Positions 1 to 46,378 of a DNA stretch of 64,000 bases are shown in pieces. Source of the stretch: Promethearchaeota archaeon (lineage in GTDB: Archaea; Asgardarchaeota; Lokiarchaeia; Sigyniarchaeales; SOKP01); assembly GCA_016926735.1 (NCBI GenBank), contig JAFGOA010000014.1, positions 28,112 to 92,111 on the forward strand, in the 5' to 3' direction. Each line of letters starts with the position of its first letter. Position 1 is the first letter of the stretch. The translations under genes were made by a program, and so were the position numbers. A model generated the notes under the pieces. It ran no database searches. It was not told where the DNA came from and was given only the letters and a program-made list of their open reading frames with translations.

Positions 1-582
1 CCTCCTCTGCAAGAATCCGATTGGGAGCTAAATCTTCTTGAGTTACTAAAACTCGTTCTGTTCCATTTATTATAAAATATCCACCAGGATCTAAAGGATC
101 TTCTCCTTTATTTATTAATTCTTGTTCTGAAATATGTTCTAATGGACATCGACAACTTTTCAACATTATTGGAATTTTACCAATATATATTTCAAGAGTC
201 TCTTCAGGTTCTTCTCTTTGAGTTCTTTCATCGATAGTAATTGGAGTCATTTCTAAAGTTATGTCTGCAGCATAACTTAGTTCTCGAATTCTAGCTTCAA
301 TTGGAGTTATCTCCATTGTAGCGCCGTCAGCTTCTCGAACTTTTGGTTTTCCTACATTTATTTTACCGAATTTGATTTTAAAGCCGGGTATTTCCTGTAA
401 AATCATGAAATATGATTTAATATATCAGGTACAACTTCCCCGCTTTCATCAACTATTTGTTGCATTTCATTTTCGATAAAATCATTATATGAATCCAAAT
501 GTTGTCGAACTAAGCCTTTTTCATCAAATAGACTCTTAAGTACTACCCATTTATCCTCATTAGATAATTTTTCAATGCTCAT
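1..582 (-). CDS. rpoB: DNA-directed RNA polymerase subunit B (Rpo2), 5' part, truncated by window edge; two exons 582-424 and 391-<1
   Basis: Manual translation from ATG at 582: MSIEKLSNEDKWVVLKSLFDEKGLVRQHLDSYNDFIE...EVVPD, then after a 32-nt insert IPGFKIKFGKI...EARIRELSYAA...GKIPIMLKS...GEDPLDPGGYFIINGTERV. These are conserved RpoB N-terminal motifs, directly downstream of rpoH. Absent from the supplied ORF track. Confidence 0.95.
392..423 (-). other. Putative 32-nt BHB intron in rpoB mRNA
   Basis: Transcript reads GUA CCUG AU^A UAUUAAAUCAU AUUUC AUGAUUUUA CAGG AA^A UAC. Outer helix GUA/UAC, central 4-bp helix CCUG/CAGG, two 3-nt bulges (AUA, AAA), inner hairpin AAAUCAU/AUGAUUU. Unspliced frame hits TGA; canonical cleavage gives in-frame V-P-D-I-P-G-F. 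Confidence 0.85.
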
Positions 583-625: not shown

Positions 626-883
626 TTAAACCTTTTCTTTAATGACAAATCTGTAATAATATATTTGAGAGACTGTTGTATCAGAATCTCTTATAATTTT
701 AATAACATCTCCTTCTTTTGCTCCAATTGCAATCGCAACTGGATCTTTCTCAAATATTTGGGGAAGATCTGTTAATTGAATTTTATATTTTGCTAACAGA
801 TCTTCAGTCTCAGATTTAGTTAAAAGAATATGCTTCGGTACTAATTTATGAAGAAGCACATCCACTCTTTTTTTCTTAGTCAA
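626..883 (-). CDS. rpoH: DNA-directed RNA polymerase subunit H (Rpo5)
   Basis: HKLVPKH...LPQIFEKDPVA...GDVIKIIRDS...YYRFV motifs; TTG start with GAGGAT SD-like site (890-895, minus); upstream of rpoB. Confidence 0.97.
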   Translation of the reverse strand: MTKKKRVDVLLHKLVPKHILLTKSETEDLLAKYKIQLTDLPQIFEKDPVAIAIGAKEGDVIKIIRDSDTTVSQIYYYRFVIKEKV

Positions 884-949
884 GGAAATATCCTCATTTT
901 AAAATTAATATTAATAAGAATGTATTTCTAAAAAGTTTTTTTATTTTAT
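861..949. repeat. Left copy of 89-bp direct repeat bounding the island (rpoH upstream region plus first ~8 codons)
   Basis: Ungapped alignment to 41909-41997 (offset 41048), 6 mismatches in 89 bp by manual count. Confidence 0.93.
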
Positions 950-1185
950 TTATTTCGAGGTTTTTTTTTAACTTATTTAATTCTAAAATTCTTGGTGGAA
1001 AAAATCTTTATTTTCTGTAATTGGTATAAAAATTAAGAAGAGATATATTTTATAATATTAAGCTATACTATTAATCAATTGATTTCAGAGAATAAATAGA
1101 TTCCAAATAGTATCGAAATCTTATCAGATATAAAAAAAAAAAAAAATATAAAAAAAAATATACAAATCTAGTTTGTAAAATTACC

Positions 1186-2112
1186 TTAGTTTTGAATATC
1201 TCTGTTCTTAAAATATAAAAATCCTGAAAATAGAATGCATAATCCCATTGTAAGCACTATTATAAAAGAGATTATTGGATGGACATAATTGGTTTCAACT
1301 GGAACTGATCCTGAATATTTCGCTATTCCCATTGTCATAACATGTTGAAGTAGATCAGGTGAAAGATTGAGTACTCCCTTTAACATGGAGTAAAGGAGAT
1401 TTACAAAATGATAATGAATATCAACCCAATATAAATAAAATTGTTCATAAGGGGGATTCCCATCGGATGAGACTAAAAGGAACATTTTCATAAATGGAAA
1501 TATGAGAAAAAATACCATTAAAATCATCAATGGGATGAAAAGAGCATTTCTAGGTTTAGACACTAAGCACGAGATACCTATAGTAACACTTTGAAATATA
1601 AAGAGTACCAGTGTCCAATTCAAAAGATTTATTATATAAAAGAGAAAGATATCTTGGAATGGAAATCTCAAATATATGCTTATACATATAATACTTAGAG
1701 ATGATGATATTATTATTAATCCAAATATAAGACTCGCAAAAAACTTAGATAGAAATATATTCCTTCTTGAAATGGGATAGCTTACTAAGGTGAGCATTGT
1801 ACCTTGGTTAACTTCCGCAGAGATTAAAGGAGCACTATTTAAAGATATAATAATCAGTAATGTAGGCATATAGATAAGATAAAAAACGAGGAAAAATGTT
1901 CCTTCCATAATCGAGGAATTAGTAGTCAATCCATTAGTATCGATACTAAAAGCTAATATTATAGGAATAAATAAGAGTACTAGTATTCCCCCTATTAATC
2001 TTGGAAGTGTGCCTATATCCCCAAATAATGTCTTCTTAAAAATTTCAATTGTAGGATTCGATTTTCCCCTATTGGTTAGCTCGAATTGTTCTGTGTTTGT
2101 ATTTTCTGTCAT
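1186..2112 (-). CDS. ABC-2 type transporter permease
   Basis: About 6 TM segments; ISAEVNQGTMLTLVSYPISRRNIFLSKF signature; 2 bp downstream of the ATPase gene. Confidence 0.9.
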   Translation of the reverse strand: MTENTNTEQFELTNRGKSNPTIEIFKKTLFGDIGTLPRLIGGILVLLFIPIILAFSIDTNGLTTNSSIMEGTFFLVFYLIYMPTLLIIISLNSAPLISAEVNQGTMLTLVSYPISRRNIFLSKFFASLIFGLIIISSSLSIICISIYLRFPFQDIFLFYIINLLNWTLVLFIFQSVTIGISCLVSKPRNALFIPLMILMVFFLIFPFMKMFLLVSSDGNPPYEQFYLYWVDIHYHFVNLLYSMLKGVLNLSPDLLQHVMTMGIAKYSGSVPVETNYVHPIISFIIVLTMGLCILFSGFLYFKNRDIQN

Positions 2113-2114
2113 AA

Positions 2115-3095
2115 TTATATCCCCCTAAAATTATCATTCATCATTTCTAAAAATATATCTTCTAAAGTGAACTCCTCTTGGGAAAATTTCTCTAATAAGA
2201 TGTTATTATTAATGAGGATTTTCGGTACTTTTTGCTTTAGTGTATGAGTATCGCTAGGGATAATATGAATATTTAGACCTCGAGCATCAATCCATACTTT
2301 TTCAATAAACTCCTGATTTTCTAAGAGCTTTAACGCTTCTTTGTTTGAGTTAGTATTTAATATATATACATTATTTGCTTTTGAGTGCGTTTCTTTAATA
2401 TTTTCAATTTTATTTGTAAGCACAATTTTCCCTTTATTGATAATCGTGATATAATCGCACATTTGCTCAATCTCAGATAATACATGGCTTGACACAAAAA
2501 CACAAATATTTTTTGATAGTGCTCGAATTTCTTTAATAATCTCAGCACGACCTACGGGATCTAGATTTGAAGTAGGCTCATCTAAAATAAGCACGTGTGG
2601 TTCTTTTATTAACGCCGAAGCTAAAGCTATTTTCTGCTTCATCCCTCTGGAATAGGTTTTTATCTTTCTATTTTTTGCTTCTGTTAAATTAAACTGCTTT
2701 AACAACTCTTTGGTCTTTTCTATTGCTTTTTCTTTACCAAATCCGCTAACTCTCCCAAAATATTGTAGATATTGCTCTCCTGTCATTCTACCATAAAGTG
2801 CTGGATCTTGAGGGAGAAATCCTATGAACTTTTTTGCATCTTGAGATCCTGCATTATTTCCTTTTATCTTAGCTTGTCCATTTGTAATGGAAATCGCCCC
2901 AACTAGCATATTAATTGTTGATGATTTACCTGCTCCATTAGGTCCTAAAAATCCATGAACACCTTTTTTAACAAATAAATTTATCTCATCAACCGCAGTT
3001 ATTTTTTGTTCTCCTTTACCATATATTTTTGTTAGCTCTTTACTCCAAATTTCCAATGAATTTGGATTAATATTCATACTTTTTACTTTAAGCAT
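2115..3095 (-). CDS. ABC-2 type transporter ATP-binding protein
   Basis: Walker A GPNGAGKS, signature YSRGMKQK, Walker B LILDEP, H-loop SSH. Confidence 0.95.
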   Translation of the reverse strand: MLKVKSMNINPNSLEIWSKELTKIYGKGEQKITAVDEINLFVKKGVHGFLGPNGAGKSSTINMLVGAISITNGQAKIKGNNAGSQDAKKFIGFLPQDPALYGRMTGEQYLQYFGRVSGFGKEKAIEKTKELLKQFNLTEAKNRKIKTYSRGMKQKIALASALIKEPHVLILDEPTSNLDPVGRAEIIKEIRALSKNICVFVSSHVLSEIEQMCDYITIINKGKIVLTNKIENIKETHSKANNVYILNTNSNKEALKLLENQEFIEKVWIDARGLNIHIIPSDTHTLKQKVPKILINNNILLEKFSQEEFTLEDIFLEMMNDNFRGI

Positions 3096-3250
3096 AATCT
3101 TATCATGAATTTTTTTCTTTTCTTTATATTTAGTCTACAATATTATTTAAATATATAAAGAACAAAAAGTAATTTCAAATATACTCTTGTTCTTTTCTAA
3201 CACACATCATAAATGTATATTACATTACCTATATTGAAATAATTATAGCA

Positions 3251-3544
3251 TTAGACAATCAAATCTTTTATAATTTTACTAAAGATTTTCCTCTCCTTTT
3301 GAGAAATTTCCCTACTATTCGTACTAAAATTACAGTAAATATTATAATCCTCTTCCTTTGAATCCTTTAATATCCATAAGTTATCTTTTATAATTTTATT
3401 TTGTTTTGCTTCAAGAATATTTAGTAATTGATTTAACGTGTCAGGTATTTTTCTTTCATATTCCTTTTTAAAATATATCTCAGAGAAAATACCTTTAATT
3501 AATTGTATGTAAATTAATTTTTCATTTGGAATTTTAATATTCAT
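3251..3544 (-). CDS. Hypothetical protein (97 aa)
   Basis: 4-bp overlap (ATGA) with the upstream ORF suggests translational coupling; no motif recognised. Confidence 0.55.
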   Translation of the reverse strand: MNIKIPNEKLIYIQLIKGIFSEIYFKKEYERKIPDTLNQLLNILEAKQNKIIKDNLWILKDSKEEDYNIYCNFSTNSREISQKERKIFSKIIKDLIV

Positions 3545-3855
3545 AAATTCTCATCTATTTTAGTAATATTTTCAGCATTTTTCTTATCTTCCATTATATT
3601 TCTGTAATAAATTAGAAGTTCACCCATGAGACTTAGTTTACCTTCAAGTATTTCAGGACAATGTTTTTCAACGATTCTAAATGTAGTTGTAAGTGTTCTT
3701 AATATAATTTCACTAAGATCAAAAAACTTTTTGATTGTTTGTACACATAATTTTCTAATCTTAACGGGATAACTTTTCTCCTTTATTTGATAAATTCGAC
3801 ATCCCTTATCTATTAAATCCAAAGTTATCGCATCTAATTCAATTTTTGCCTTCAT
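3541..3855 (-). CDS. Hypothetical protein (104 aa)
   Basis: ORF with plausible composition, coupled to 3251-3544. Confidence 0.55.
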   Translation of the reverse strand: MKAKIELDAITLDLIDKGCRIYQIKEKSYPVKIRKLCVQTIKKFFDLSEIILRTLTTTFRIVEKHCPEILEGKLSLMGELLIYYRNIMEDKKNAENITKIDENL

Positions 3856-4078
3856 AATTTAGTCTTTTGTATTTTGGTATAATATTATGATAATTCATAA
3901 TTCGAAATATCTGATCATATAAATAGAAATACTCCTATTTAAATATTATACTTTCTCATAAATCGTATTATTGGTCTTCATAATACGTAAATATATTGAA
4001 AAGAAAAATAGAGTATTTAAATCATTAAAATTATATATTTTTTGAGAACGAATTTTAAAAATCGAGATTATAACAATA

Positions 4079-4339
4079 ATGAAGATTAAAAAACTCCTGA
4101 AATACATTGATATACTATTATTCCTCTCTAACATCGATAAGGTTGAGCTAAGGATCATTTCTGAGAAGTTCGACATCAGTTATCAAACAATCCATAGTTT
4201 AATCGAGAAATGGAAAGATGAGGGATATGTTGAGAGGAAAAGAAAGGAAATCTTAATTCTTGGTGGCGATAAGTATGAATATAAAATAACTGAGAAAGGA
4301 AAAAAGACAATTCAATTATTAAAAAGAAAATTGAACTAA
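4079..4339 (+). CDS. Winged-helix DNA-binding protein (MarR/PadR-like)
   Basis: ISEKFDISYQTIHSLIEKWKDEGYVER...YKITEKGKK wHTH pattern. Confidence 0.8.
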   Translation: MKIKKLLKYIDILLFLSNIDKVELRIISEKFDISYQTIHSLIEKWKDEGYVERKRKEILILGGDKYEYKITEKGKKTIQLLKRKLN

Positions 4340-4483
4340 TCTTTCTTATATCTAATATTTAAAATTAATAAGCAAACCACATTGAAAAAAAAGCTAATAA
4401 TGCTTAATTCTCATATAAAGTTATTCTTGTCATGATTGAAAAAAATTAAATCAGCTTCAAAAAAGTTATGAAATTTAAATAGA

Positions 4484-4681
4484 CTACTTTTTTTCTTCAA
4501 ATTTTGGAACAAACCATAATTCATATGCTTTTTTTATGCATAAACGTGCAACTTCAGTATTTTGCTTGATTCCCAGATTTTTCTTAATTTTATGAAAAAA
4601 ATCATATAATGGTTGATCATCCTTCTCTGAGAGGTTAAGTCTAATCATTATATCTGGACTTTTTTCTTTTTTTTTAGCCAT
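4484..4681 (-). CDS. Small ribbon-helix-helix-like DNA-binding protein
   Basis: IMIRLNLS beta strand followed by helices LYDFFHKIKKNLG and NTEVARLCIKKAYE; 65 aa, basic. Confidence 0.65.
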   Translation of the reverse strand: MAKKKEKSPDIMIRLNLSEKDDQPLYDFFHKIKKNLGIKQNTEVARLCIKKAYELWFVPKFEEKK

Positions 4682-4730
4682 AATTATTGAATTGTTTTTT
4701 ATTATAATAAATTTTTTGTTAATTTAGGAT

Positions 4731-4859
4731 GGTTTATTCATTTCTGTCCATTTTTATCCATTTTTATCCAAAGACTTATAAATGAAAAAATCATAGTAAT
4801 CTTAGCACGATTTTGTATAAATTATAATAATTATTAGAGAAAAGGACAGAAAGGAATAA
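4731..4859. promoter_or_regulatory. Divergent promoter region with 10-bp tandem repeats and a 20-bp inverted repeat
   Basis: TTTCTGTCCA-TTTTTATCCA-TTTTTATCCA (4741-4770) precedes a TATA-like TTATAAAT (4776-4783). 4734-4753 is inverted at 4840-4859 (18/20). Lies between divergent RHH and wHTH genes. Confidence 0.55.
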
Positions 4860-4924
4860 TCAAAGATTCTAAAAATACAGTATTGCAGTATACTCTATTC
4901 TCAATCTTAATTCAAGATTAATAG

Positions 4925-5452
4925 GTGAAAAATATGAATTTGGAATCATTTCTTGTAAAAATTAAAAGAGATTTAGACATACTAAAGATAATTAGCTTAA
5001 TATGTAATTCTAAGCAAATTACTCTTTCAGATTTAAAAAGTCAAGTCAATATTCCATATTCAACAATTTATCGATTTTTAGAATTGATGGTAAAAAATAA
5101 TTATCTTGTAAAGACTAAAAGAAGAGACAATGAAAATCCATCTAATATTTATATAATTGATACAAAATTAGAGATTTATAAAGATATAGTTGCAGAACTA
5201 TTTCATAAGAACTTATCTGGAAAATCCTCTTTTCTGGGGTATTCAATAATCAAAAAAAAGATTTTCCTTAGCCAAATTTTAGAGGAAATAAATAGTTGTC
5301 TAAAAGAATGGGTAGATAGAGTAAATAAAGAAATTGAACTTGGTAATTTAAATCATCTTTCAGTTTTAAATCACTATGCTATTATTCCCTATAATAGACT
5401 ATGGGACTATTTTGAAGAGATTGAATTCCTGAGAAAAGTAGATGGTCTCTAA
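4925..5452 (+). CDS. Winged-helix transcriptional regulator (IclR/ArsR-like N-terminal HTH)
   Basis: ITLSDLKSQVNIPYSTIYRFLELMVKNNYL HTH motif. Confidence 0.75.
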   Translation: MKNMNLESFLVKIKRDLDILKIISLICNSKQITLSDLKSQVNIPYSTIYRFLELMVKNNYLVKTKRRDNENPSNIYIIDTKLEIYKDIVAELFHKNLSGKSSFLGYSIIKKKIFLSQILEEINSCLKEWVDRVNKEIELGNLNHLSVLNHYAIIPYNRLWDYFEEIEFLRKVDGL

Positions 5453-5912
5453 TAAAAAAAGAGGAATTTTGTGTGATAAATTCGTAAAAAAATCTCTTTT
5501 TTACATAAGCATAACTGATCTTTTACACACTAATAGATTTTTTTTTATAACAGTATTCTCACTAATGGAAATTAAAATTAGTATCATTTAAATAAAATAA
5601 TATCAAAGATATATTAAAAACTGACAAAAATATTGAGAATTTCCGTACTCTTATTCTTTATAGTTATTTGAATTATGCTAGCTAATGATTATAGGCGTGA
5701 TAATTGGTACTCTATAAAATTATGTCTAATGGGAATTTATCTTATTTCTCAATGCACCTATCGAAAAAATAACGAAAATAAATTAATTAATTCCCTCTCA
5801 ATTAGTCAGCTTATCTATTTAAAAGTCATAATTATTTTATTTTTTCTTTTAAATACTACGAAATGTTATTTATTAAAAATTTAGACCAAAAATAAAAAAA
5901 TAGGTTATTGAC

Positions 5913-8900
5913 ATGGAAAAATATAGTGATAAATCAATTGTCTATAATAGGGTATCCTATCTATTTGAAAAAGAAGATAAGAAAAATTTAGAAGATCTTT
6001 CAATAGATCTAAGATTTAAAAACTCTCATCTCTCAATATATATGAATGAATTAAAGGATTCTGAAATTGATCTTAGACCATTTACAAATAAACGTCAAAT
6101 TAAGAATAATCCTATAACAATTTCCTTAGATATTAATCCTCATAAAATAAAGGAATTGCACTCAATTAAAGTTGAATTATTCGATCTTTATGATATTATC
6201 TCAGGTTATTCAATAACTATCCCTGCAACAGAATTCGCACCCTTTAAAAAATCAATTGAAATCAATATTCCAAGTATCCAACAATATCTCGACAAAATAA
6301 AATTAATTCCTATTTTTAAAAATCCAAATCCAAAGTATAAATTATATTATGATGGATATTATGGTTCTTCTCAATCTAAAAAACAAAAACAAAAACAAAA
6401 ACAAGATCAAACATCTGATATAAGTAGTGATTCTTCTAATGTTTATACTTGGTCTTCAATTTTCTTATTATTAATTCTGAGTGTTATTTTATTATTTATC
6501 AATACACCATATTATCCAATTCCCATTTTATCCATGATTTTACCAATAATTCTATTTTCAAAGAGAGACAACCATCGTAAGTATTTTATAACTGCTGTAC
6601 TTATTTTACTATTTTTAGTCTGCTTTCCAGTAATTTTTACAATAACCCCTCTAACAAATGTAAATTCCCAGAAACCTCATTTTGCAAAAGTATCATATTC
6701 ATCAGGACAAAATACTGATGATTTGAATTTTGATACATTACAATATTATAATGAACTTGAGGATCTGGGAAAAATAACGATTAATGATATAATCATTTTA
6801 AAATCTGAAACCTCCTTATCTCTTGCTCAGAGTTCCCAACAGATAGTAATTCTAATAGCACAAAATAATACAATTATTAATCCAAAATATTATGAAAAAT
6901 CATTTAATTTTAGATCTAATTACATTCAAGGTCCTAAAAAAAAAACAGATATATTAACTATAATAGATCTTAAGGATTATGATTTATTACCTGGGGAATA
7001 TAGACTTACAACATTTCTTTCTGTAAATAATTTCTACGGAGTTCAAAGGTCTGAACTTCTAACCTATAATATCTCCCTTGGAAGAGACGTATTACATATT
7101 GTTGGATCTGATCGATATAAAGAATTAGGGAAATATGGCTCTGTATATACAATTGATAATCAAGATTCTTTTACTACTTTCTATGAAGGAAGAATCTTAA
7201 ATTCAGCTGGAATTGGTGTTCAATTAGATAATATGGAATTATATTTAGAAAAGAACAATAGATATCAGAAAATTGCAACAATATCAACTAATAATCAAGG
7301 ATATTTTATTTATAATTACACTACAAAAGGATACTTTGAAGTTAATTCTCTTGCGAAAATAGAATTTGGGGGAAATGAGCTATATAATTCGTTAACACAA
7401 GAAGAATATGCTGGTCTTGAACAAAGTATTAGAGGGAAAAGGATCTTCTCTGATTTAAATGGAGATGGATATCCTGAATTTCCATATACATTAGAGGAAT
7501 TAATAAATGCATTAAACAATGCAAATCCCATAGAAATTCTATCCTTTTTCACAGAATTCAACGAGATGAGTGGAGCTTATGTGTATGATTCAATATTAAA
7601 TTATCAAGGAGAAGTATTTGGAAATGTTAATTTAAATATAGAGGGAATTCGAGATAGTGGAGCACGATTTGATGGTCTAGGAGATAAGATCTATACAAAT
7701 TCAGAATTTAAAATGGGTGATGTTAATCATGATGGGAAAATTGATATTCTCGACGCTCTTATTACCGCCCAAAATTATGTGGGGCTAAATCCAGAACCAT
7801 TTTATCCAGAACAAGCAGATGTAAACGGAGATAATAATATAGATATTCTTGATTCATTGCAAATTGCTCAATATTATGTAGGACTAATAACTGAATTTCC
7901 TAATTCAGATCCTTCAGAAATTACCTATGATAATTATGATTATATTAATTTCGGTGATATTCTCAGTAGTGATTTAGCTTATAATGATGAATTTGGACTC
8001 TCATTATGGATAAATCCAAGCAAATTTTCTTCTAATTTAAGCGAACATGGGGTAAAGAATTGTTTCTTCTCCAAAGGTGAAAATCTAGAGATTGGATTTA
8101 ACGAAAGTGGGTATTTAATGGTCTATTTGAATACAAATAATATCGAAACCATTACATATTTTGGTCAGGAAAACTCAATTCAAAAGAATTTATGGAATTA
8201 TATAGCAATTCGCTTTGAAATGGGAGATGTTGATGCTCTTATCCAAGATTCTTGGTATTTAACTGATATATACGATTCTGAGCCTTGGATAAATTATGTA
8301 TCATTAGATTTGAGTGGGGATCTTATTATAGGGGCAGAAATCAATACTTTCAGCTGTTTTGGAGGAATTATAGATGAGCTAAAGATTTATCGAGAAGCAC
8401 CTTTACATTCAGAATTAGAGGAGACCATTTATTCTATATTGAGAATTGATAGTGCGACAGCATATAACTTTCAAGATAACAATTGGCAAGATATAACTAA
8501 TGGTGAAATAATTGATGAATATATTCTATTTGAATGTAATAAAAGCAGAGATTCACTTGCTATTATAGAAAAAGTAGAATTCTATCTTTCAAATACTCCT
8601 TTAGATTATAATAATATCATAATTGATCAATGGAAACTCATAAAAGAATTTCATTATGACGCAAATAACTATAAATATATGTTGGATATAAGAGATATTC
8701 CTGATGGTGACTGGTATTTTATAATAAAAGCAATAGATAATAGAAATAATGAGATTTTTAAAACATGTGAAGTATTAGAAAATGATATTTATTTTACAAT
8801 TAGCAATTTTCAAGATAATATAAATTTCATATATCTAGGATATAATGACAAGATTAATTATAATTCACAAATAGGTTTAACAATAGATCCTTTATTTGAA

Positions 8901-11900
8901 AATTATGTTGAATCACTTGATTTATTTATCAATTTTTCTGGATCTGTAGAAAAAATAAATCTAAATCCAATATCCTTTGATAAAATTATACAAAATAATT
9001 ATCTAATTAGTTTAAATGATATTTCAGATTGGATTGAACAGATGAGCTTACTTCCTAATGAATATGATGTGTCATTTATCGTTAAAGGGTATTTTGATTT
9101 CAACCAATTTGGAGAATATGAATATACATATAACCTCAGCTCAACGATATTAGATATAAAATCCCCTGTAATATCAATTATAGAGAGTGGGTATAGTCTT
9201 GAGTTTGGAAAGACCTATACTGCTACAGACAATAATCAAATTACATTTGGAATCACATCTCTTGAGGATGATTTTAAAAAAGTAGAAATTTATTATCGTT
9301 ATGATAAAACGTCTCAGCAGGATGAGTGGATATTTTATAAAACAATTATTCCTCAGCAAATCCCTTTTGATATATCCTTTAATATAGCTAATCTCAAGGA
9401 TGATAAAATATATCTACGCTTTAAAATTATCGATAACTTGGGAAATTCAAGAGATCTAATCAATGAAAATAATTGGATAGAGAAAGATCAAAACAACCAT
9501 GATTTTATAGTGAATGGATTAGATGAAAATGCAATATATTCACTTGATTCAGGTAATATGATAGATATTGCTCCAGTAATACATCCCTACGATAATGATA
9601 TAACAAAAGTAATTATTACAACAGAATATGAATCATTTAGCTTAAACAATGTGTATATTGATCATAATAGCATCTATTTTTCAGACATTAATGAAGATAT
9701 TAAACTAAATGCTGTTTTCTATACAATTTTTGGAAATAAAATCACTTCAATTCCAATAAAAGTACAACTTTTCCAAAATAATAATCTTATTTCGTCAAAA
9801 ATATTTTCCATAATCGCTACAGGAATGTATTTTTCAGAAATTATATCGATTTCAGATGTGATTATTAATCCTGAAGTCAATATTCCCAATAATAATATAA
9901 ATATGAGATTTACTACTTCAAAGAAGACATATAATAATTCATATGGAATTCCCTATATTGTAGGTTCTACTTCTCCCAATTTGCAGATATATAATGATAA
10001 TAATGAATTAGTTGATATTATAGATTTAAATCCAAATATTGATGGATATAGAAGTGCTTCCTACTCAAATATTAATATTAGAAATAATTATTTTGAAATT
10101 TCATACCCAACAAATCTATTATATGAAGAGGACATATGTTCAATAGATAAGCTAATTATTGGTGGTATTGAATATGACTTCTCGCAATACTTTAATAATG
10201 AAAATATCATTATAAAATTAGAGTCTCAAACTATATTAGATGGATTTTATGATAATGCTAATCCAATAAAGATTATATATAGTTATGTATCATCTAATAA
10301 ATTGAATCAATATGATGGTAGCTATGATTTTAAGACGATACCACAAGGAAACTACACATTCATTGGAGAGTTTTTAGATTTATCAGGAAAGCGCTCATAT
10401 TATAAAATTGATAATTATAAGATTGATTTCCAAGAACCTCAAATCTATAGACAATTTAGAAACGGAATCTCAATAAATCCAAAATCACATCCAAGTTTAT
10501 CATTTATAATTTTGGATGCCTCAGAGATTATTAATTATTCATTTAACCAATCTCTAGAAGGATATTGGATAAAAGAAGGTAGTCTCTATACTTTTTATAT
10601 AGATGAAAATATAAATCTCCCTGATGGGTATTATAATATTGAACTGAGTTTCGAAGATGCTAATAATTTCCTAAGTTCAATTGTATTTAGCATATTTATC
10701 GATACTCAAGCTCCTAAACCTAAGATTATAAAAAATGATTATGAGTACTTCAAGGGGCTCTATCACGTATATCTTGAGATTGAAGATGATTCTATTTGTG
10801 AGCTTTATTTAGATAAAGTAGTTGATTCTCAAGGAATAATATTTGATAAGATTATACAATCAGTAATAAAGAAAAATGATACTGCTTGGGATTTAGTATT
10901 TGATACTTCACAACTCCCTGATGGCGTTTACAATCTAACATTTATCGTAATTGATCAAGCTGGAAATATGCTGAATTTTAATATAAACGACAGAGTTTTT
11001 GATAACACTTCCCCTCAAGTTGAATCTATCTATAGAGAATGTGAAATCGAAAATCTACTTTATTTCTCAGAAGAATTAAGTGATACTAATTACTTAAGTG
11101 AGCAAGAATATATTTTCATAAAGTCAGTGGATAAAATCTTCGGAAAAACTAATATTGTGGAACTATATTATACGGACCCTCTAGAAGAGCATAATTTAAC
11201 AATAGCGGAAGATCTTAATCTTGAAACATTACTATATAAGGTAATAGGATATTCAAATCCAATTATCTATGATGTAGGAGATATATATAACATCCAGAAA
11301 ATAACGATTGGAGGGATAGAAGTTAATGATTTTTCAATTATACAAAAAGAGGGAGAGCTATTTTTAAAAATAGGAGAAGAATATCGCTACTTATTAACAT
11401 CAAGTAATGCAAATAAAATAACAGCTCAATTATACACTATAAATTCCAATAAATTAGAGCTTGTTTATAATAATTTAGACCAAATTTGGCAATTAAAATC
11501 ACCTAATTCTGATTATTTTAATATATCTTCACATATTTTAATATCAGAAGGACAGACCTTTCTTTTCTGGTTTGAATTACAAGATAATTTAACAAACACT
11601 TTTATCACTAAAAAATATAAAGGTATTTTAGATAATGAATTAGAATTAACAGAAGAAAAGAGCCTTTTTGAATGGAATTTCAGAACTAATCCTGATAATC
11701 AGGGAATAATGATCTTAGGTTCACCAGATCCAATGTATAGTATAATTAATATCAATCACACACTAATAGAACATGATGTATTTAAAGTCTATATCTATGG
11801 ATCTGAAAATAATATAGACTTTTCCTTATTAGGAAGAGCATATTTTAACGGAGATAATATTTGGACTCTTTACTGGGATTATACACATAATTCCATTATC

Positions 11901-32900: not shown

Positions 32901-35900
32901 GAAAATCCGAGAGATAGTTTTGATAATCATTTAAGCATAGATTTTAGTTTTATAAGTACTTCTGGAAATATTATATTTACCCAAAGTGCCAATGTAATTA
33001 CAAGTGATATAACTTCATTTATTCCTATATCTTACACTACTAATTTAGATATATGTGACGATAATAATCATCTTCTTAACTATAATTCTGAATTATATGA
33101 TCATTTTGAATTGTACACTGATCAAAGCTCTATTATTTATGAAGCAGATGTAGATCTCAATGGTGAACCTGAATACAAGCATATAATAGATATTGATAAA
33201 GATGGTATAATAGATGTTATAAAATATGGAATACAAGATGCTGAAAATGCAGGACAGATACTTTGGCATACTGTAATTCAAAATTATAATGGATTTGAGA
33301 CGAAAATCACCAGAGAAAAAGGAGATGATCTAGAGACTAAATGGTTTGATGTAGATGACAAAGCATTTTCTCATTATGATTTTAATATATGGAAACTAGT
33401 TGGGATGGTTTTATTTATGCCTCTATTACTCCAAGGATTGTTTAGTATGATCTCTCCTTCAAGTGATTATTGGGCTCAGAAAAAAGAGCAAACGATGATT
33501 ACAAAGGAAGAGGCTGTAAATCATAAATTTTATAGTATAACCTTAGATAAAGATTATGATGGTTTAGCCGATCAGCAGATTGTATATGAAAGAAATGAAG
33601 CAATACTATCCTATAAAGTCGAGACGTTTGAGAAAACCTTACTTGTAGCAAAAAACAAAGGCAATGGTCTTATCCATCAACCATTAGAGAATATTTCTAT
33701 TAATAAATATAATGATTTAGTATTTAATGATGAGCTAACCGAAGATTTACTTGATTCTGGTGATTTTACAAATTCTAATCATTATATTTTAGCAAATGAA
33801 GATATTCTTAGAGCTTCTTATAGGAAATTTACAGAAAATAGTTCTACATTTTATCAAGATAGTTATTCACAGGAAAAGATCACAATTACAGATTACAGAG
33901 ACGGTGAGATTTCCGAGCAGAGAATTTATCTTGATGATTTTAGAAGTAATGAAATTGATGAAATTGAACCTTATTTTACTTCCTTTATTCAAAGTCAACA
34001 AATAACTAACATCGAGACTGGAGAGCAGACAACGATAAGCTTTGATCCTCAACTTCCATTCACAGATCCTATAGATATCTCTTGGGAAGGTGAGACATGG
34101 GGGATTGATAATGTTCCTATTAAATTGGATTCTCTTCAGGTATTAGGAGAGAATTCCTACTCTTCAAATAGATTTGAAAAAGATATTTATCTTACGATAC
34201 CAAATCGATTTTCTTTATATAATGATTATGGTAAAATATCTAAGGATAGTGTTGTAAATAATGGCTATGCTCAATTTAAAGCTAGTGGTGTATTAATAAC
34301 TACAACTGATGATAAAGTCTATTATACAGGAGATATTGATTCCTTCATTGATGGAAGTGCTAAGACCGAAGGCAAGTATTTTTATCATGATAGTAATCAA
34401 GATGGATTTTATGAAACAGTCTATATCTTAAGTGCTAATCCAACAGAAGCAGAAGATGGACTTCCTATATATGATGTTATTTCAATTGCGTTTAATTATG
34501 ATGGAGTCCATGATGTAGCTCCATACGGACAGATATATAAAAGTGAAATTACAAAGACAGATCTTAATGATTTAAGCTCAGATAAATTAAAAATGGGAGA
34601 CTGGATTTATAGCTATGGTAATATTAGATCTGAAAAATTGTTATTCCCAGAAGAAAATGAGATTTGGGAGAAATATAAACCGAAGGATCATATTTTTGAA
34701 CTATATAAACTTGTAGATATTTCACAAAATCCAAAATTCTCAGAGCTTTTCTATGAAATTCGACATAAGACATATTCAGATGCATGGGAAATTTATAAAG
34801 ACCAATTGTCAGCAGATATAATAGAACAGGTATTTACAACCACAACAGCTTCTGTTATTGCTGGAATTGTAGAAGCAATAATGACCGCAAGTATTATTTT
34901 AGCCCCTTTTGCACATGGGGCTGGAATCCTCACCTATTTTGGTGTATATACATTAATGACAAAGTATTTTATCGATCTAAAAGTTCATCGGTCAAATTCA
35001 ATTTTGAAATCTCAGACGTTCTATCCCACAGATAAAGACAAGAAGACTCCTACATCTCTAAATGAGAGGATGTGGATGGATCGAATTCTAAAAGATTCTA
35101 TGGCATCTGCTCTGATAGGTCATCCTGGGGGGTATTATAGAACTCTATCAGGGGGTATCTCAGGAGAAAAATATACAGCAGAGATTTTAGTTTCACCGCC
35201 AAATGGCGATAGGATCTTTAACTCTATGTCAGGATTTCTTGATTTGTTATGGGAGAATTTTTGGGATATGGGAGAATCTAATCCAGATGTCTATACTGCT
35301 CTTGATTTTGATGATCTTAATTTAGATTATTTCTTGCTAACAAACGATTTATTTGCTCTTAATGGAAGGACTGATAAAAAAGAATATTCATTTAGCCTTC
35401 AAAATTATAATAATGGAATCTATAATGAATATCGGCAGACTACGCTTGGAGCTCTTCAAAATATGGTATCTATTGAATCTCAGAATGGTTTAAACACGAT
35501 AAGAGCAACTTGTGTTAATGGAAGACCTGAATATGAGTTTATAAATAAAGATTCCATTCAATTTAATTCTATTTTACCGTTATCTGCATTATCTAAGCCA
35601 ATAATTCTAAGTAAGGAACGCTACTTACAAATTAATCCATTAAAAGGACATTTAACAATTGATGTTCAATGTGTAGGTGATCCGAATACATTAGGAATTT
35701 GTGCTTATGATATGAATTCAATAGAAAATCAATTCTATAAATCTAAAATATGCATTAATGAAGAGAGTTTCGATTATCCAATTTCAACCATCTATATTGA
35801 TATTATTCAGGAAGATGTGGAAAATGGAGTTCAATATCTTGCTCAAGGAATTGATATTAATAGCTCTGAATTTCTATTAGATGATGGAAATATCTATTTC

Positions 35901-38900
35901 ACAAGACCAATAGACACGATTCTTACTGAAAAATATAATCCTTTGAAAAATCTGCTAAATAATAGAATACTTGTTGGAAACAGTGATTCAAAACTGTATT
36001 ACAAAGTTCATATCTTATTTGATGTAGTTGTAGAAGATACAACAGAATTAACAAGTAGATTAGCATTAGCTCAAGCAACCCAATATGCTGTTATGGACTA
36101 CTTTAGTCAATACACGTTTGCTGAAGTTTCTGCAAATATGATCAGCGAAATTGCCTATACCGAGACATTAACCTTTTGGTCAACAGTAATTTCTGCTCCT
36201 GCTTCTTACTTTGCCTCAACAGCTGTATCTGCCACATTGCTTCATGTATTTTCACAAGCAGGAAGTCAGCTAGCAAAAAGTGCCCTAACCTCAATAATTA
36301 CTTCCTTTAAAACGAATATTATAAAGACAATGTTTAACGCTCTAACTATCGCTCCAATAAGGGAAGTATTTGAAGAAATCATCTTAGATGGATTTATCGA
36401 GTCCCTTTCAGAAGGATTTGTAGATTTTATTGGCGGTACTGACGATATGGCATTTTGGCTCTCCTCTATTGGCACATCAGCAAGAGAGACAGTAGGACCT
36501 GTAGGAACATTGATTCGGGGAGGAGATAAGAATATTAAGACTCAGCTTTCTCTTATGAAAGCTCACAAAGCAGGGGATATAAACGCCATACTTGAGATTG
36601 AACAAAGAATAGCTCAGGAACATGAGCAAAAAATGCAATCAGAAGCACAAAAAGAGCAACAAAAATCTACATGGAAACGATTATTAAGCTCAAAATTGTT
36701 TAATCTACTGATTCTTGCGATGCCAACCATGTTTATCTCTCCATTAGCATTAGGAACGCTAAATCTAATGATAAATAGTATAGGAGGGGATAGTTCCAAG
36801 CAAAATTCCAATGTGTATGGAAAAATAAAATCTCGATTCCAAGCATTTAAGACTAATAGAATACCAAGAATAAGCTATGATGTAGATCCTTCCCTATCAG
36901 CTGAAAGTGTATTTCTCAGAAATATCGAAAAACAAATGAAAAAACCAACAGAATTGGATAGTGTTGATCTTTATTCTATTTTTAGAGGGCTTCAAGAAGT
37001 AGAGATTAATGATCCTGCTCTTACGATTTTATTTCCTGAGATCAATCCAAATCCAAAAAATATTGAGAAAGAGGTTTTAGTAAATAAATTTAATGAAATT
37101 AGAATTACAAATTGGATTCAAGAAATTACAAGTGATTATAGATTTAGAGAATTTAAAGGAAAATTTGAAGATATAAAACAAAATACTAAAAATCTCGGAT
37201 TTGAGAAAAGATCAGAAAAAATAATTCAGCAAATTAAATCAATTGTCAAAGAAAAATATCCTTCAAATCTAAGATTTATTGATGCTATTGGAATTGAAAG
37301 ATATGATCCTAATTTTATATTAGTTGGAAAAATGGTTCATGAAGCTAAAAGAGATTTGTTTATCAAAGACTATAGAGGTGCTAAATCTTATGTTCCAAAA
37401 ATTTCTGAAAATACAATTAGTAAAATGACCACAATTGAAGTTATAGATTATTTAAATGAACACTATTATGGTTTTGATAAGAATATTAACCTAATTATGA
37501 TGATGCTTGATGGTACGCTTATTCCTGATTATGTTAATCTAGCTGATTGGTTAGAGACGCATGGGTATACAATTAATGATGACATTATTATTTTACCTCA
37601 AAATCTTCCTTCAGATGGAAAAGAATTATTCAGTAAAGGAAATTGGGAGAAAGGAACACCATCTCCTTATTATCCCTCCTTAGAGAAGCTATACACTGAA
37701 GTAGGATATTTATTTGAAAGAGCAGGATTAATCAGAGCATTATATAGAGAAGGAGTATCCTTTAATGAAATAATATACGATTTATCTCTTTATATATATG
37801 GAGATTCTGAAGTTATTCCTCAGACGAGAATTGCTCGATATAAAAATGGTCAGCATTTTATTCCTCAACCAAATATGTACTATCAATTCTTATTTGACTT
37901 TATAGCAAAATTAGAACAATCATTAGATAAAGAGACTGCTGAAATATATATTAATGAACTTAAATCAATTTTTGATAAATATGGATTTTCTATATTTGGG
38001 GGTAGGTATGATAATCCATTTTACAATGATGCAAGATTTATTTCTTATAAAATTGCTTACATTTTATGGCAAAATAGGATAGTTTCCTCAAACTCTATAG
38101 AAGGACTTTCAGGGAATTTTTTCCCAGAAGAATATAAGTTAACTAGATTTTATAGTAGACTTGATAGAAATGTAGTAAAAGCATATACTCCAAGTGACCA
38201 TCCTCGAAATTCTATGGGTTATGCTATAGATAATCTGCGAGGACATATTATTCAGGCTATGAATACTAAGCAGGCTGACTTAGATGGTAATATATTAACA
38301 AACAAAAGAAAAAGTGAAATATTAGCAGAAATAAATAATTTATTGAATAATTATGATGCAAAGACTCAATCTTATTGGAAATGGTATAAAATGCTCACAA
38401 AAGGAGATAAGGATAATAAATACAATAGAGACAAATATGATTTTACCGATTTAATATTAGAGATAATCTTTTCTAATGAATTATTACCTCAAATAGGATT
38501 AATGAAGGATATGATAAATTTACTATTTGGAGGAGTAAGTGCTGTCTCTATAAAGACCATATTTGGAGATGCTGAGAAAATTTCAATTCGTACATTATTA
38601 AAAATGAAATTTATTGTCTCAAAATGGACTATTCATGACTTTGAGATCTTGGAAAGTAAGATTGCATTAGATAAGGACCACTTAATCCAAACTAAAGATA
38701 TAATCTTGAACGTACTTGAGAATTTTATTCGAGAAAGAGGGTATTTAGAAAAAGAGGTTATAAAGTATGGAAGAATATTCACTCAAAAAGATCTTATATT
38801 AGAATATAGTCTGATAAATGAATTATATAATTATCTTGCTGAAATTCAATATCTACAACAAAAAAATACTTTAAAGCAACCACTTATTTCAGACATAAAA

Positions 38901-40034: not shown

Positions 40035-40110
40035 TAAATCTTCTGCCCCATAACATTAAAATATTTGAAAAATTATATAAAATACGAATGCATATGAAGA
40101 GGAATAATAT

Positions 40111-41790
40111 ATGAACACAATTAAAGACGTAGAGGAATCAGGAAAATCAGAAAAAGATACACTCCCAAGTAAGCAGTTAGATGCCTTAAAGTATTTAGAA
40201 AAACTCGCTGGTAAAAATCTTTCCATAGTAAGCAAAATAACCTATGAAAAAGGAATAACGATCGAAAAAGGGCAGATAACGGGACTTAATCTTGAATATT
40301 GTGGACTAACATCTGTTCCAGACGTATTGACTGCTTTTCCAAACCTTCAAATTCTTGTCTTAAAGAATAATAAACTTAGTTCCCTTTCTGAGACAATCAG
40401 TCATCTTGGATCTCTTAAAGAGCTATATTTAACTGGAAATCCCTTAGAGAACCTTCCTGAAGTGATTGGAGACCTAAATGAGCTTGGAAAATTATCATTA
40501 ACCCATACTCATCTAGAAACGCTTCCAGAATCGTTTGGAAACCTCAAGAATCTTCAGTGGCTAAATTTAGAAAATAGTAAAATATCCCATCTTCCAGAAT
40601 CGATTGGGCATCTTAAAAATCTTAAGAGACTAATCCTTAATAACAATTATTTAAAAGAGCTTCCAGAATCAATTGGACACCTTAAATCGCTTGAATCTCT
40701 CAATTTGGTATATAATAAATTAATTAAACTACCTAACTCAATTGGAAATCTCTCATCCCTCAGAGAACTTAGCATTTATAGTGAATGCCTCACAAAAGTT
40801 CCTGAATCAATTGGTAATCTTATCTCACTTAATAAACTTAATCTTCATAGCAATATCCTCTCAGACGTTCCAGAATCTATAGGAAATCTTACTTCCCTTA
40901 AAGAACTTAGTATTTATAGTGATAACCTCCCAGAAGTTCCTGAATCAATTGGTAATCTTAACTCACTTAATAAACTTAATATTCATAGTGATAAAATCTC
41001 AGAGCTTCCAGAATCTATAGGCAATCTTCCATCACTTACAGAACTTAGTATTTATTGTGATAACCTCCCAGAAGTTCCTGAATCAATAGGTAATCTCACT
41101 TCCCTCAAAGATTTCTTTTTGAGATCAAGAATAGAAAATCTTCCTGAATCAATTGGGAATCTCACTTCTCTTGAGTCTTTAAACCTTTCTAACAATCGCC
41201 TCTCACAACTTCCAGATACAATAACGAATCTTAAAAAGCTTAAAATCTTAAGAATTGGGAGAAACTTTACGGAATTTCCAAGGATAATACTAAAGCTCAC
41301 CACACTCCAGGAATTATATCTTGGATTTAATAAGTTGGAAACGATTCCCGAATCAATTGAAAAGCTTAAAAATCTTAAAGAACTATCCTTTCATAATAAT
41401 AAGTTAAAAGATATCCCTGAGTCAATAGGGAATCTAACTTTGCTCCAAACCTTATGGTTAAAAGATAACCTGTTAGAAAAGCTTCCTGATTCTATAGGAA
41501 ACCTCAAGGAACTTCGCTTATTATATCTTCACTCTAATAACCTCGGATCACTTCCAGATACAATTCAGAATCTTACAAAACTCGAAAGGGTTTATTTACA
41601 AGAGAATTACGAGATGGAAGAAATTGATCTCTCTCTATTTAAGAATTGTGAAAGGTTGTATCTACTAAATCTGCCATATCCTTATAACATAGAAAAATTC
41701 TATTGGACGGGCTCAAAAATACCTGAAAAACAATCTATTCCTAGAGGTCTCTGGAAATTTTACTCAAAATTAGTTCTAAGAAAAAAATAA
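40111..41790 (+). CDS. Leucine-rich repeat protein (~20 repeats of 23 aa); candidate immunity protein
   Basis: LPESIGNLxxLxxLxLxxNxL repeats; no signal peptide or TM; 76 bp downstream of and co-oriented with the giant ORF; last gene before the right island repeat. Confidence 0.93.
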   Translation: MNTIKDVEESGKSEKDTLPSKQLDALKYLEKLAGKNLSIVSKITYEKGITIEKGQITGLNLEYCGLTSVPDVLTAFPNLQILVLKNNKLSSLSETISHLGSLKELYLTGNPLENLPEVIGDLNELGKLSLTHTHLETLPESFGNLKNLQWLNLENSKISHLPESIGHLKNLKRLILNNNYLKELPESIGHLKSLESLNLVYNKLIKLPNSIGNLSSLRELSIYSECLTKVPESIGNLISLNKLNLHSNILSDVPESIGNLTSLKELSIYSDNLPEVPESIGNLNSLNKLNIHSDKISELPESIGNLPSLTELSIYCDNLPEVPESIGNLTSLKDFFLRSRIENLPESIGNLTSLESLNLSNNRLSQLPDTITNLKKLKILRIGRNFTEFPRIILKLTTLQELYLGFNKLETIPESIEKLKNLKELSFHNNKLKDIPESIGNLTLLQTLWLKDNLLEKLPDSIGNLKELRLLYLHSNNLGSLPDTIQNLTKLERVYLQENYEMEEIDLSLFKNCERLYLLNLPYPYNIEKFYWTGSKIPEKQSIPRGLWKFYSKLVLRKK

Positions 41791-41908
41791 CGTTAATTAT
41801 AAATATTTATTTAGCACAGAGTCAAAATCATTAGAGTTTGAATGGATTATATATTTAGAAAAAGTAACCTGGAAGACTTAATTAAAAATAGAATTAAAAA
41901 GAAGAGTT

Positions 41909-41997
41909 TCTACTTTTTTTTTCTTAGTCAAGAAAATATCCTCATTTTAAAATTAATTTTAATAAGAATATATTTCTAAAAAGTTTTTTCATTTTAT
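41909..41997. repeat. Right copy of 89-bp direct repeat; includes a truncated rpoH 5' duplicate
   Basis: Minus strand reads from TTG as MTKKKKVETLLFNSIFN*, versus rpoH MTKKKRVDVLLHK; 83/89 nt identical to 861-949. Confidence 0.93.
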
Positions 41998-42030
41998 ACC
42001 ATAAAAAAAAACCTTGATATTCTTTAGAAT

Positions 42031-42660
42031 TCAGACAAAAGAATATTGAAAAATCCAAAATCCACTCCTTTTACATTTTACTTTAATTTTATTTTTAAAT
42101 TTATCTAATAAATATTTATAGACATGGGGAGCTCCCATTTTTTTCCTAATAACAAATTCAAATAATCCTCCTTTTTTCAAATAGAATGGTAATACATCAA
42201 ATATCTCAAAAAATTCTTTTTTTCCCTTTCTAAGAGGAGGATTCATATAAATTATATCAAATTTTATATCTTTATTTTTTAATGATTCAAAATAATCCCC
42301 TGAAAAAATATGCATGTTATTTTTTAATTCAGGAAGATTTAATTTTACATTCTCTTTTGTACACCATATCGCTCGCTTATTGCTATCAATAAAATATATC
42401 TCACTATCATGAGAATAATATCCTAATACAATTCCTATTGGTCCATATCCACAACCCAAATCTAATAATATACTTTTTTTTTCAGGAATTGTCATGTTTT
42501 CTATAAGGATTTTAGTCCCTAAATCTATCTTTCTAAATGAAAAAATACCTGTTGTAGTTTTAAATAAAAATAAGTGTCGTCTTAAACTTTCAGAAATTGT
42601 AAAGACTTTTAATTGAGAATCTGGATATTTTGAATAGTAATGATGCTCTTCTTTTACCAT
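42031..42660 (-). CDS. Class I SAM-dependent methyltransferase, RsmC/MTS family
   Basis: GIFSFRKIDLGT, LDLGCGYGPIG (motif I), NPP (motif IV). Confidence 0.92.
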   Translation of the reverse strand: MVKEEHHYYSKYPDSQLKVFTISESLRRHLFLFKTTTGIFSFRKIDLGTKILIENMTIPEKKSILLDLGCGYGPIGIVLGYYSHDSEIYFIDSNKRAIWCTKENVKLNLPELKNNMHIFSGDYFESLKNKDIKFDIIYMNPPLRKGKKEFFEIFDVLPFYLKKGGLFEFVIRKKMGAPHVYKYLLDKFKNKIKVKCKRSGFWIFQYSFV

Positions 42661-46005: not shown

Positions 46006-46304
46006 GATAATTTTTTTTTTTTTAATTTATTCTTAATTTCCAGAATTTGATTCCAATATAAAGGTTTGAGGTGTACTTTTCAAACTATTTTTTTATAGTT
46101 TTGATTCAAATTATTTTATGTAGAATGCTCTTCATTTCTTAATTAATAATATTAGAACATGAAGTGTAGAAATACAATAATTAGAGAATTAACTCATAAA
46201 ATTTTAAGAATATTGTTTATACTGTTTATAAATAAGGTTTAAATTTGAATTGAGTTTAAAATTTAAAAATATTATTAATTTTATATAATATACATATGAA
46301 TTTG

Positions 46305-46378
46305 CGGGCTATGTGGGAATTGAACCCACGACCTTCAGGTTAAAAGCCTGCCGCGCTACCTGCCTGCGCTAATAGCCC
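46305..46378 (-). tRNA. tRNA-Lys(UUU), no intron
   Basis: Acceptor stem GGGCTAT/ATAGCCC; anticodon loop CTTTTAA; T-arm GTGGGTTCAATTCCCAC. Confidence 0.93.

Follow-up and report, generated by a model that had tools for sequence, protein, structure and literature searches.

The genes for RNA polymerase (RNAP) subunits H and B (rpoH-rpoB) and those for the pseudouridine synthase Cbf5 and a small-domain methyltransferase (cbf5-methyltransferase) are held apart, in the Promethearchaeota archaeon assembly GCA_016926735.1 (genome G000), by a 41-kb block of DNA whose two ends are marked by copies of an 89-bp direct repeat. The block lies in a 64,000-nt stretch of contig JAFGOA010000014.1, which at its full length is referred to as the window; the assembly itself is a short-read metagenome-assembled genome (MAG) of 3.88 Mb in 238 contigs and is 99.3% complete. 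The 41-kb block is a true insertion, as the original prediction from the sequence had proposed; it represents a horizontally acquired cargo island, and it was acquired recently relative to the genus. The comparison covered three congeners (G001, G002, which served as outgroup, and the nearest relative G003, 89% complete), a family set of 121 genomes (G000 and 120 others), of which 117 possess both the methyltransferase gene and rpoH, and metagenomes in the form of contig L109 and the salt-marsh sequencing runs X2, X3 and X4. Metagenome evidence refers to assembled contigs rather than raw reads, and the contigs of the runs were compared with one stretch of the window, on the left-junction side. 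The features that define the two junctions and their flanks are the following.

2-582, minus strand: N-terminal part of RNAP subunit B (flank), in frames 403-582 and 2-406 (PF04563 Rpb2_1)
626-883, minus strand: rpoH, 85 aa, TTG start at 883 (PF01191 RNA_pol_Rpb5_C, E 3e-26; 98% to G003)
861-949, minus strand: left repeat copy, from the promoter box to codon 7 of the working rpoH (84/89 to the G003 empty site)
950-41908, no strand: inserted island, 40,959 bp, absent at this site in G003, G002, L109 and 114/117 family genomes
952-970, plus strand: 19-nt element (ATTTCGAGG-T9-A) beside the left copy, an inverted look-alike (17/19) of 42002-42020
41878-41931, minus strand: dead stub of TTG, 16 codons and a stop, the first 7 codons rpoH-like (read from the sequence and aligned)
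41909-41997, minus strand: right repeat copy behind the methyltransferase gene (88/89 to the G003 empty site)
42002-42020, minus strand: T9 stretch past the methyltransferase stop, likely its terminator, and partner of 952-970
42031-42660, minus strand: small-domain methyltransferase, 209 aa, flank (PF05175 MTS, E 6.9e-32)
42674-43687, minus strand: Cbf5 pseudouridine synthase, 337 aa, flank (TruB_N, DKCLD and PUA domains)

The evidence for an insertion comes from genomes in which the site is unoccupied. In G003, rpoH and the methyltransferase gene are separated by ~100 nt with a single copy of the 89-mer between them, which is the empty site that the original prediction had suggested looking for in close relatives. 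The same arrangement with a single repeat copy is found in G002 and on metagenome contig L109, and a contig from run X3 can be followed from rpoH through the repeat, departs from the window sequence exactly at position 950 and enters the methyltransferase spacer. On a wider scale, the two genes are located on one contig, about 100-300 nt apart, in 114 of the 117 family genomes that possess both (a count read by eye from the coordinates listed), and their adjacency extends to most genomes of a second family of the order. The three exceptions are G000 itself with 41 kb between the genes, G001 with 3.3 kb, and G009, where the genes lie at two contig ends; an overlap across this contig break was sought and none was found. 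G003 and G000 are 89.6-95.8% identical in DNA over the ten first-numbered (arbitrary) G003 contigs and about 94-96% identical genome-wide, and the proteins encoded on either side of the site are 98% (rpoH) and 95% (methyltransferase) identical. The G003 assembly contains no island DNA, and G001 and G002 hold distant paralogues alone.

Relatives of the island occur in the salt-marsh metagenomes. Low-depth contigs in runs X2 and X3 are 92-98% alike to the exporter and small-ORF region of the island (window 1180-4710), and overall runs X2, X3 and X4 contain, in small shares, a G003-like strain plus low-depth island-like pieces. The X2 and X3 runs with the island-like contigs also hold the G003-like rpoH flank with its empty site, and one island-like variant from these runs is without 192 nt at 3259-3452.

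A different insert is present at the same spacer in G001, where 3.3 kb (contig C189, locus L065, 1121-4459) lie between the methyltransferase gene and rpoH and carry two small membrane ORFs and the gene for a secreted protein of 715 aa that contains a caspase (Peptidase_C14) domain. This insert is flanked by an exact 14-mer (1163-1176 and 4395-4408) at the upstream edge of the promoter region, a match of marginal significance (matches of this length also turn up in 0.6% of control windows taken from real sequence and in 2.8% of shuffles); local alignment of the insert flanks gave a score of 41 vs 28 +/- 4.6 in shuffles (maximum 53) and is thus not above chance. Inserts at the methyltransferase-rpoH spacer are therefore seen in two of the four genomes of the genus vs none of the 112 other family genomes with the genes on one contig.

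The repeat itself is confirmed as a two-copy structure. The copies at 861-949 and 41909-41997 align without gaps at 83/89 identical positions (blastn 93.3% over 89 nt), with mismatches at window positions 863, 867, 885, 910, 922 and 942 and a longest identical run of 24 nt; the local alignment score of 148 lies far above that of 200 shuffles (24.7 +/- 3.6, maximum 41). Both repeat boundaries are sharp. A 110-nt query recovers these two as the only full copies in the whole 3.88-Mb assembly, its two other matches (59 and 33 nt) being weak and of low complexity. A self-comparison of G000 yielded 15 same-contig direct-repeat pairs (45-400 nt, 2-100 kb apart), among which the rpoH pair has the widest spacing. 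Read on the minus strand, each copy starts ~10 nt before an A-rich/T-rich box, AAAA[C/T]TTTTTAG, continues through the leader, a Shine-Dalgarno (SD)-like GAGGA and the TTG start codon, and ends past codon 7 of rpoH, just as the original prediction had described for the SD-like site, start and first codons. The box, which we take to be a core promoter of the BRE/TATA type as generally known from archaea, precedes rpoH in 16 of 22 listed relatives, again counted by eye from the sequences. The left copy contains the TTG of the working gene (883) plus 66 nt upstream of it. In the right copy the corresponding TTG (41931) opens an ORF of 17 codons (MTKKKKVETLLFNSIFN and a stop); the copy itself ends 33 nt from the methyltransferase stop and is indeed the dead stub that had been foreseen. 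A weak extension of the similarity beyond the repeat, towards the LL codons of rpoH, did not hold: 11 of 24 positions are identical, and 5% of island 24-mers reach as much, which is the level of chance.

The repeat also harbours a perfect 16-nt palindrome (TTAAAATTAATTTTAA) in the interval from promoter box to SD-like site. It is intact in the right copy (41948-41963) and in the G003 empty site, and is broken in the left copy (900-915) by the change at 910. It could be an operator of rpoH, or a chance occurrence in AT-rich DNA.

The two copies differ in their relation to the empty site. The right copy matches G003 at 88/89 positions, the one difference (885) lying between the SD-like site and the TTG, and its near-identity to G003 continues for ~85 nt into the methyltransferase flank with one mismatch and one indel. 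The left copy matches at 84/89, with the differences at 863, 867, 910, 922 and 942 spread over its full length. This makes it ~4x more divergent than the adjoining rpoB-rpoH flank (5/89 vs 13/860 differences, Fisher p = 0.02). At positions 922 and 910 the left copy has the base of G002, at 922 that of G001 as well, and the right copy has the base of G003. From these patterns the copies do not appear to be recent in-situ twins, at least one of them being seemingly of separate descent. Neither copy switches type inside the repeat, so the exchange that created the junctions would have lain at one edge. Such a pattern is what the identity block of a site-specific element would give; plain homologous recombination, with its need for homology on both sides, would be unlikely to produce it. 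On balance, the left copy is favoured as the imported one, because it is more divergent than the rpoH flank and because the near-identity on the right side runs on into the methyltransferase flank.

The reading that we tentatively place first, at somewhat short of an even chance, is a single reciprocal exchange at the rpoH-proximal edge, after which an imported promoter and 5′ end would now be serving rpoH. The incoming DNA, presumably circular, would have borne an 89-bp look-alike of the rpoH promoter, leader and first seven codons, and the chromosomal rpoH segment would have been exchanged with this look-alike at a point on the rpoH-proximal edge of the latter. The imported copy (more likely the left one, 861-949) would thereby supply rpoH with its box, leader, SD-like site, TTG and codons 1-7, including a K6R change, and the resident copy (41909-41997) would have been stranded behind the methyltransferase gene as a promoter with a 17-codon dead ORF pointing into the island tail. 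Since the island contains no recombinase, the enzyme would have been supplied in trans, by the integrase of another element or by the single Xer-like tyrosine recombinase of G000, or would have been lost since.

Several observations weigh against this reading. Pfam and PHROGs searches of the island ORFs gave no match to an integrase, transposase or Cas1. The only PF00589 protein of G000 is encoded on another contig and has Xer-like domains, and its three small serine recombinases are on other contigs, too. The 120 other family genomes were each without a second full copy of their own rpoH promoter region, and a search of viral contigs yielded no match to the repeat. Among the contigs listed for the left-junction stretch, no joint (with a side >24 nt) that would betray a circular or excised form was seen. 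As for polarity, 5/89 corresponds to the ordinary species divergence between G000 and G003, so that the left copy could be the resident one, and 1/89 in the right copy is not unusual given that 100-nt bins of the methyltransferase flank differ from G003 by 1 to 7 mismatches, and one bin by 20; the polarity comparison moreover sets coding against non-coding stretches. Finally, the 19-nt T9 look-alikes that stand 2-4 nt outside both copies in opposite orientation (17/19) are not explained by a simple exchange. Their motif, TC[AG]AGG-T(8 or more), occurs in the 3.88-Mb genome at 952-970 and 42002-42020 only; part of the likeness may stem from a dyad between the T-run past the methyltransferase gene and the A-run with which the repeat opens.

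The expectation that no tyrosine or serine recombinase or transposase would be recognised inside the island was thus borne out, and six-frame genome searches likewise gave no PF00589 or PF00239 match on this contig; both Cas1 genes of G000 are on other contigs. The island ends consist of 236 and 118 nt of non-coding DNA beside the ABC permease gene and the leucine-rich-repeat gene, respectively, and besides the 89-mer no terminal inverted or direct repeats above shuffles were detected in them. Two kinds of element were considered and set aside: a DDE-type transposon or casposon, in view of the lack of terminal inverted repeats and of a transposase or Cas1 in the island, and an SSV-type element, for which there are neither integrase halves at the ends nor any PF00589 remnant. 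A 31-nt pattern from the repeat is found in contig collections in a G003 contig and one G003-like metagenome contig alone. Of the hallmarks of a site-specific element, the locus has flanking repeats that match a single empty-site copy; an integrase of its own and reuse of the site by related elements are not among its features. The term 'att-like', which the original prediction had applied, describes the look of the repeat; as a statement about function it found no backing in a second promoter-region copy among the 120 genomes, in viral contigs or in a circular form among the contigs. The island is probably fixed now. Of the proposal that the element had supplied a replacement 5′ region for rpoH, the part that stands is the asymmetry between the left (5/89) and right (1/89) copies, which favours it; that the left copy may be resident counts against it.

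Were the polarity of this single exchange reversed, the left copy would be resident and the right copy would have arrived with the island from a G003-like donor by exchange at the methyltransferase-proximal edge, so that rpoH would have kept its own promoter and the copy brought by the element would be a relic of an earlier home. This is unlikely, and yet it accommodates a good deal: the five differences in the left copy fit the genome-wide identity of G000 and G003, the right copy groups with G003 by two shared derived states, an island relative (92-98% alike) is present at low depth in salt-marsh runs with the G003-like rpoH flank, and in G001 the promoter region has the exact 14-mer of the 3.3-kb insert at its upstream edge. 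It fails to account for the ~85 nt past the right copy, which are nearly identical to G003 without a sharp change of type, and for a left copy ~4x more divergent than the adjoining flank, and 89 bp lying downstream of the exchange point would be of no functional use to an element. Doubtful, to a slightly greater degree, is a homology-assisted import in which the island already stood directly upstream of the rpoH core promoter in a congeneric donor and a linear fragment, consisting of the island, the donor promoter and the start of rpoH, entered the cell, anchored by homologous recombination in rpoH/rpoB and joined illegitimately at its far end, 23 nt into the recipient rpoH. Neither a circular form nor a site-specific enzyme would be required, which agrees with an island without recombinase and with a single event among 121 genomes; the rpoB-rpoH flank is conserved (98.4% to G003, 98.5% to L109) and would provide a good anchor, and since the next informative site past 863 is 839, the end of the donor tract cannot be placed. 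The mechanism is known from naturally transformable bacteria; against it here, we know of no demonstration in archaea, it merely shifts the question to the arrangement in the donor, and none of the other genomes among the 117 has the ABC permease or the island beside rpoH.

Among the further alternatives, the 89 bp might have been duplicated in situ around captured DNA by a staggered break or a replication template switch, the differences arising later. The sharp boundaries, the lack of terminal inverted repeats and of a recombinase, and the inverted 19-nt look-alike beside both copies (a type of scar that template switching can leave) would all be in keeping with such an event, which is nevertheless improbable, as the copies differ at 6/89 positions (6.7%), more than the roughly 5% divergence between G000 and G003, and yet the G003 site is empty. 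Moreover, the left copy has the outgroup state at 922 and 910 and the right copy the derived state of G003, so that two homoplasies, or an insertion before the split of the two lineages followed by exact loss, would be needed. The latter amounts to an old island of the common ancestor of G000 and G003 that was excised exactly, between its repeats, in the G003 lineage. No homoplasy is then needed for the grouping ((right copy, G003), left copy), and the low-depth, 92-98% alike contigs in runs with G003-like DNA would be in keeping with it as well; this history is very improbable in that the excision would have to be precise, with the joint within 2 nt of the repeat end, and hence itself site-specific, and in that the G003 assembly is without island DNA. 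Assembly error is likewise unlikely, and of all the explanations the faintest. A separate molecule, or an island from elsewhere in the genome, joined through the repeat might be suspected in a short-read MAG of 238 contigs, all the more since in a separate build of the likely source run the left junction is unbridged among the contigs listed and the rpoB-rpoH flank is poorly covered. Nonetheless, with differences at six sites, the copies offer no identical run longer than 24 bases, which is not enough for an assembler to cross from one path to the other; each set of variants is linked to both its flanks in the contig, and a dead-stub copy is not expected in an empty chromosome. In the separate build, a contig of 39,792 nt is identical to the window over 1157-6000 and beyond (depth 28.4), and the right copy is found on a contig of 1375 nt whose depth is similar (21.5).

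The cargo of the island is dominated by one gene of exceptional size, preceded by an exporter and putative regulators.

1186-2112, minus strand: ABC-2 type permease, 308 aa (PF12679, E 4e-12)
2115-3095, minus strand: ABC transporter ATPase, 326 aa (PF00005, E 5.9e-27; DrrA C-terminal domain)
3251-3855, minus strand: two small ORFs, 97 and 104 aa (no Pfam or PHROGs match)
4079-4339, plus strand: winged-helix DNA-binding protein, 86 aa (weak MarR_2, HTH_34 and PadR, below Pfam cut-offs)
4484-4681, minus strand: 65-aa ORF (no family in Pfam or PHROGs)
4925-5452, plus strand: 175-aa protein with N-terminal winged helix (weak TrmB and HTH_34, below cut-offs)
5913-40034, plus strand: giant ORF, 11,373 aa (PF13385 Laminin_G_3, E 2.5e-48 and 1.7e-15; PF00404 dockerin)
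40111-41790, plus strand: leucine-rich-repeat protein, 559 aa (PF23598 LRR_14, E 8.5e-70; PF13855)

The giant protein, taken to be a membrane-anchored protein of the cell surface, consists of an N-terminal membrane segment, LamG-like, dockerin and Ig-like domains, late membrane segments and an all-helical tail; its last 2344 aa have no Pfam match. The predicted structure of the last 540 aa has a mean pLDDT of 35.8, and a search of the ESM Atlas with residues 1-400 of the C-terminal piece gave no usable match. The C-terminal module recurs in MAGs of Helarchaeota and Promethearchaeota, where the named matches are hypothetical proteins, and three contigs of G001 (C5, C9 and C91) encode ABC paralogues (61%, 55% and 72% identity) beside giant-like ORFs of 12,725, 5,541 and 2,990 aa, respectively, which match the C-terminal part of the giant. 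Because this module sits beside ABC paralogues in G001 and recurs in Asgard MAGs, the exporter, regulators and giant protein appear to constitute a recurring cassette; scans of genome contigs and viral contigs with the C-terminal 1344 aa yielded no confirmed relative. A compositional comparison of the inside and outside of the island, another of the checks proposed at the outset, gave a divided answer: in tetranucleotide distance the giant-gene part falls in the 98-99th percentile of 645 5-kb genome windows and is atypical, and the first 5 kb of the island are typical (27th percentile). The atypical composition may reflect an odd protein more than a foreign origin.

Other blocks of G000 are flanked by repeats as well (C29 3767-6374, C147 31372-38978, C112 6995-13408, C15 917-3231 and C91 27231-30453). 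They have direct repeats of 45-171 nt, encode large secreted or surface proteins and are without a recombinase; examples are a 660-aa protein bracketed by a 76-nt repeat that copies the 3′ end of an upstream ORF, a 2038-aa protein bracketed by one of 65 nt, and two tandem genes with 171 nt (promoter plus signal peptide) in common. Clean empty sites for the inserts on C29 and C147 were not found in G001-G003.

Further features of the window lie outside the island. In the rpoB flank, Rpb2_1 profile positions 1-28 and 41-157 fall in different frames, with the frame change at 403-406, and a 59-aa ORF of RNAP subunit B ends in a TGA that overlaps the ATG of the next ORF. The same split DNA is present in G003 and L109 and is therefore no error peculiar to G000; it may represent a gene divided in two or programmed frameshifting. 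Beyond cbf5, a 667-aa DUF285 repeat protein is encoded between this gene and a tRNA-Lys gene (window 44002-46378), a region that may be another variable insert beside a tRNA. A 336-aa protein (47786-48796, minus strand) has a Ras/Roc-type small GTPase domain typical of Asgard archaea; together with the Asgard occurrences of the giant's C-terminal module, it puts this AT-rich organism in that group. The large subunit of DNA polymerase D (DP2, 1719 aa, 58227-63386, minus strand) contains an intein, with Intein_splicing/Hint matches at residues ~976-1449.

If a single exchange did place an imported copy in front of rpoH, the promoter, leader and seven codons of an essential RNAP subunit gene would be imported DNA, with a 34-kb gene alongside, and the locus would provide a clean natural case of gene flow into the control region of core transcription in the archaeal group closest to eukaryotes. 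It is conceivable, if rather improbable, that the giant surface-protein cassettes of Asgard archaea form a class of integrase-free mobile islands that land on the promoter and first codons of essential genes. Such cassettes would bring their own working copy of the landing sequence; nothing short of an exact reversal could then rid the host of the island, and each transfer of the island to another species would carry along the promoter of a core transcription gene. Should the locus be merely a fixed and decayed insertion, it would be an ordinary genomic island at an unusual address. In either case the pair of empty and occupied sites provides exact junctions for PCR and read-mapping in sediment samples.

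Compared with known archaeal elements, the rpoH island would behave as do integrated elements in which the end of the target gene is restored by the attachment block. Among 68 thaumarchaeal elements with defined sites, tRNA genes are the target in 39 cases, intergenic regions in 15 and protein-coding genes in 14; the protein-gene targets are 3′-distal regions and nearly all repeats are <26 bp, with crenarchaeal att sites given as 29-69 bp (PMC6563490). The rpoH island resembles these integrase-borne elements in its flanking direct repeats, empty site, displaced dead gene end and narrow-range cargo, and differs from them in an 89-bp repeat, in a target that comprises the 5′ end and whole core promoter of an essential polymerase gene, and in the lack of an integrase (PMC6563490). 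A trans-acting enzyme for the exchange is conceivable: besides its att reactions, the integrase of pTN3 from Thermococcus recombines any pair of similar sequences down to a length of 104 bp, giving the products of homologous recombination, and thus provides a precedent for an enzyme supplied in trans that exchanges DNA at an 89-bp look-alike (PMC5495485). Unlike in the pTN3 case, a pTN3-like integrase was not found in G000, whose sole PF00589 protein is the Xer-like one.

Closer to home, the integrated elements of Atabeyarchaeia, which are defined by population data, are like the rpoH island from Asgard hosts, and some have gene content that defies classification; the example element described combines an att motif of 11 bp with a tyrosine integrase of its own and exists as a circle alongside its integrated form, in contrast to the rpoH island, for which no short att motif, own integrase or circular form was seen (PMC11529989). 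Like the rpoH island, the aloposons of Heimdallarchaeia are site-defined insertions in an Asgard host, and giant ORFs make up most of what looks like a mobile block (PMC8813620). In aloposons, two tandem genes encode proteins of 3,000-6,000 aa, integration takes place at a tRNA gene downstream of the giants, and four conserved upstream genes include one for a MinD/ParA-like ATPase (PMC8813620). The rpoH island has none of these three structural features (tandem pair, downstream tRNA target, MinD/ParA-type upstream set); rather, it has one gene for 11,373 aa, the 5′ end of rpoH as target and genes for an ABC-2 exporter and winged-helix proteins upstream, and the sole tRNA gene of the window (tRNA-Lys, 46304-46378) lies outside it. 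This distinction is drawn from the gene layout as described. In the part of the literature that was covered, no paper was found that links rpoH to an archaeal attachment site, or that reports repeat-flanked giant-gene islands besides the aloposons. Overall, the rpoH island is an integrase-less cargo island, a kind already known, and it adds to the hint from aloposons that the giant genes of Asgard archaea ride on mobile blocks (PMC8813620), here without a tRNA target and without an integrase.

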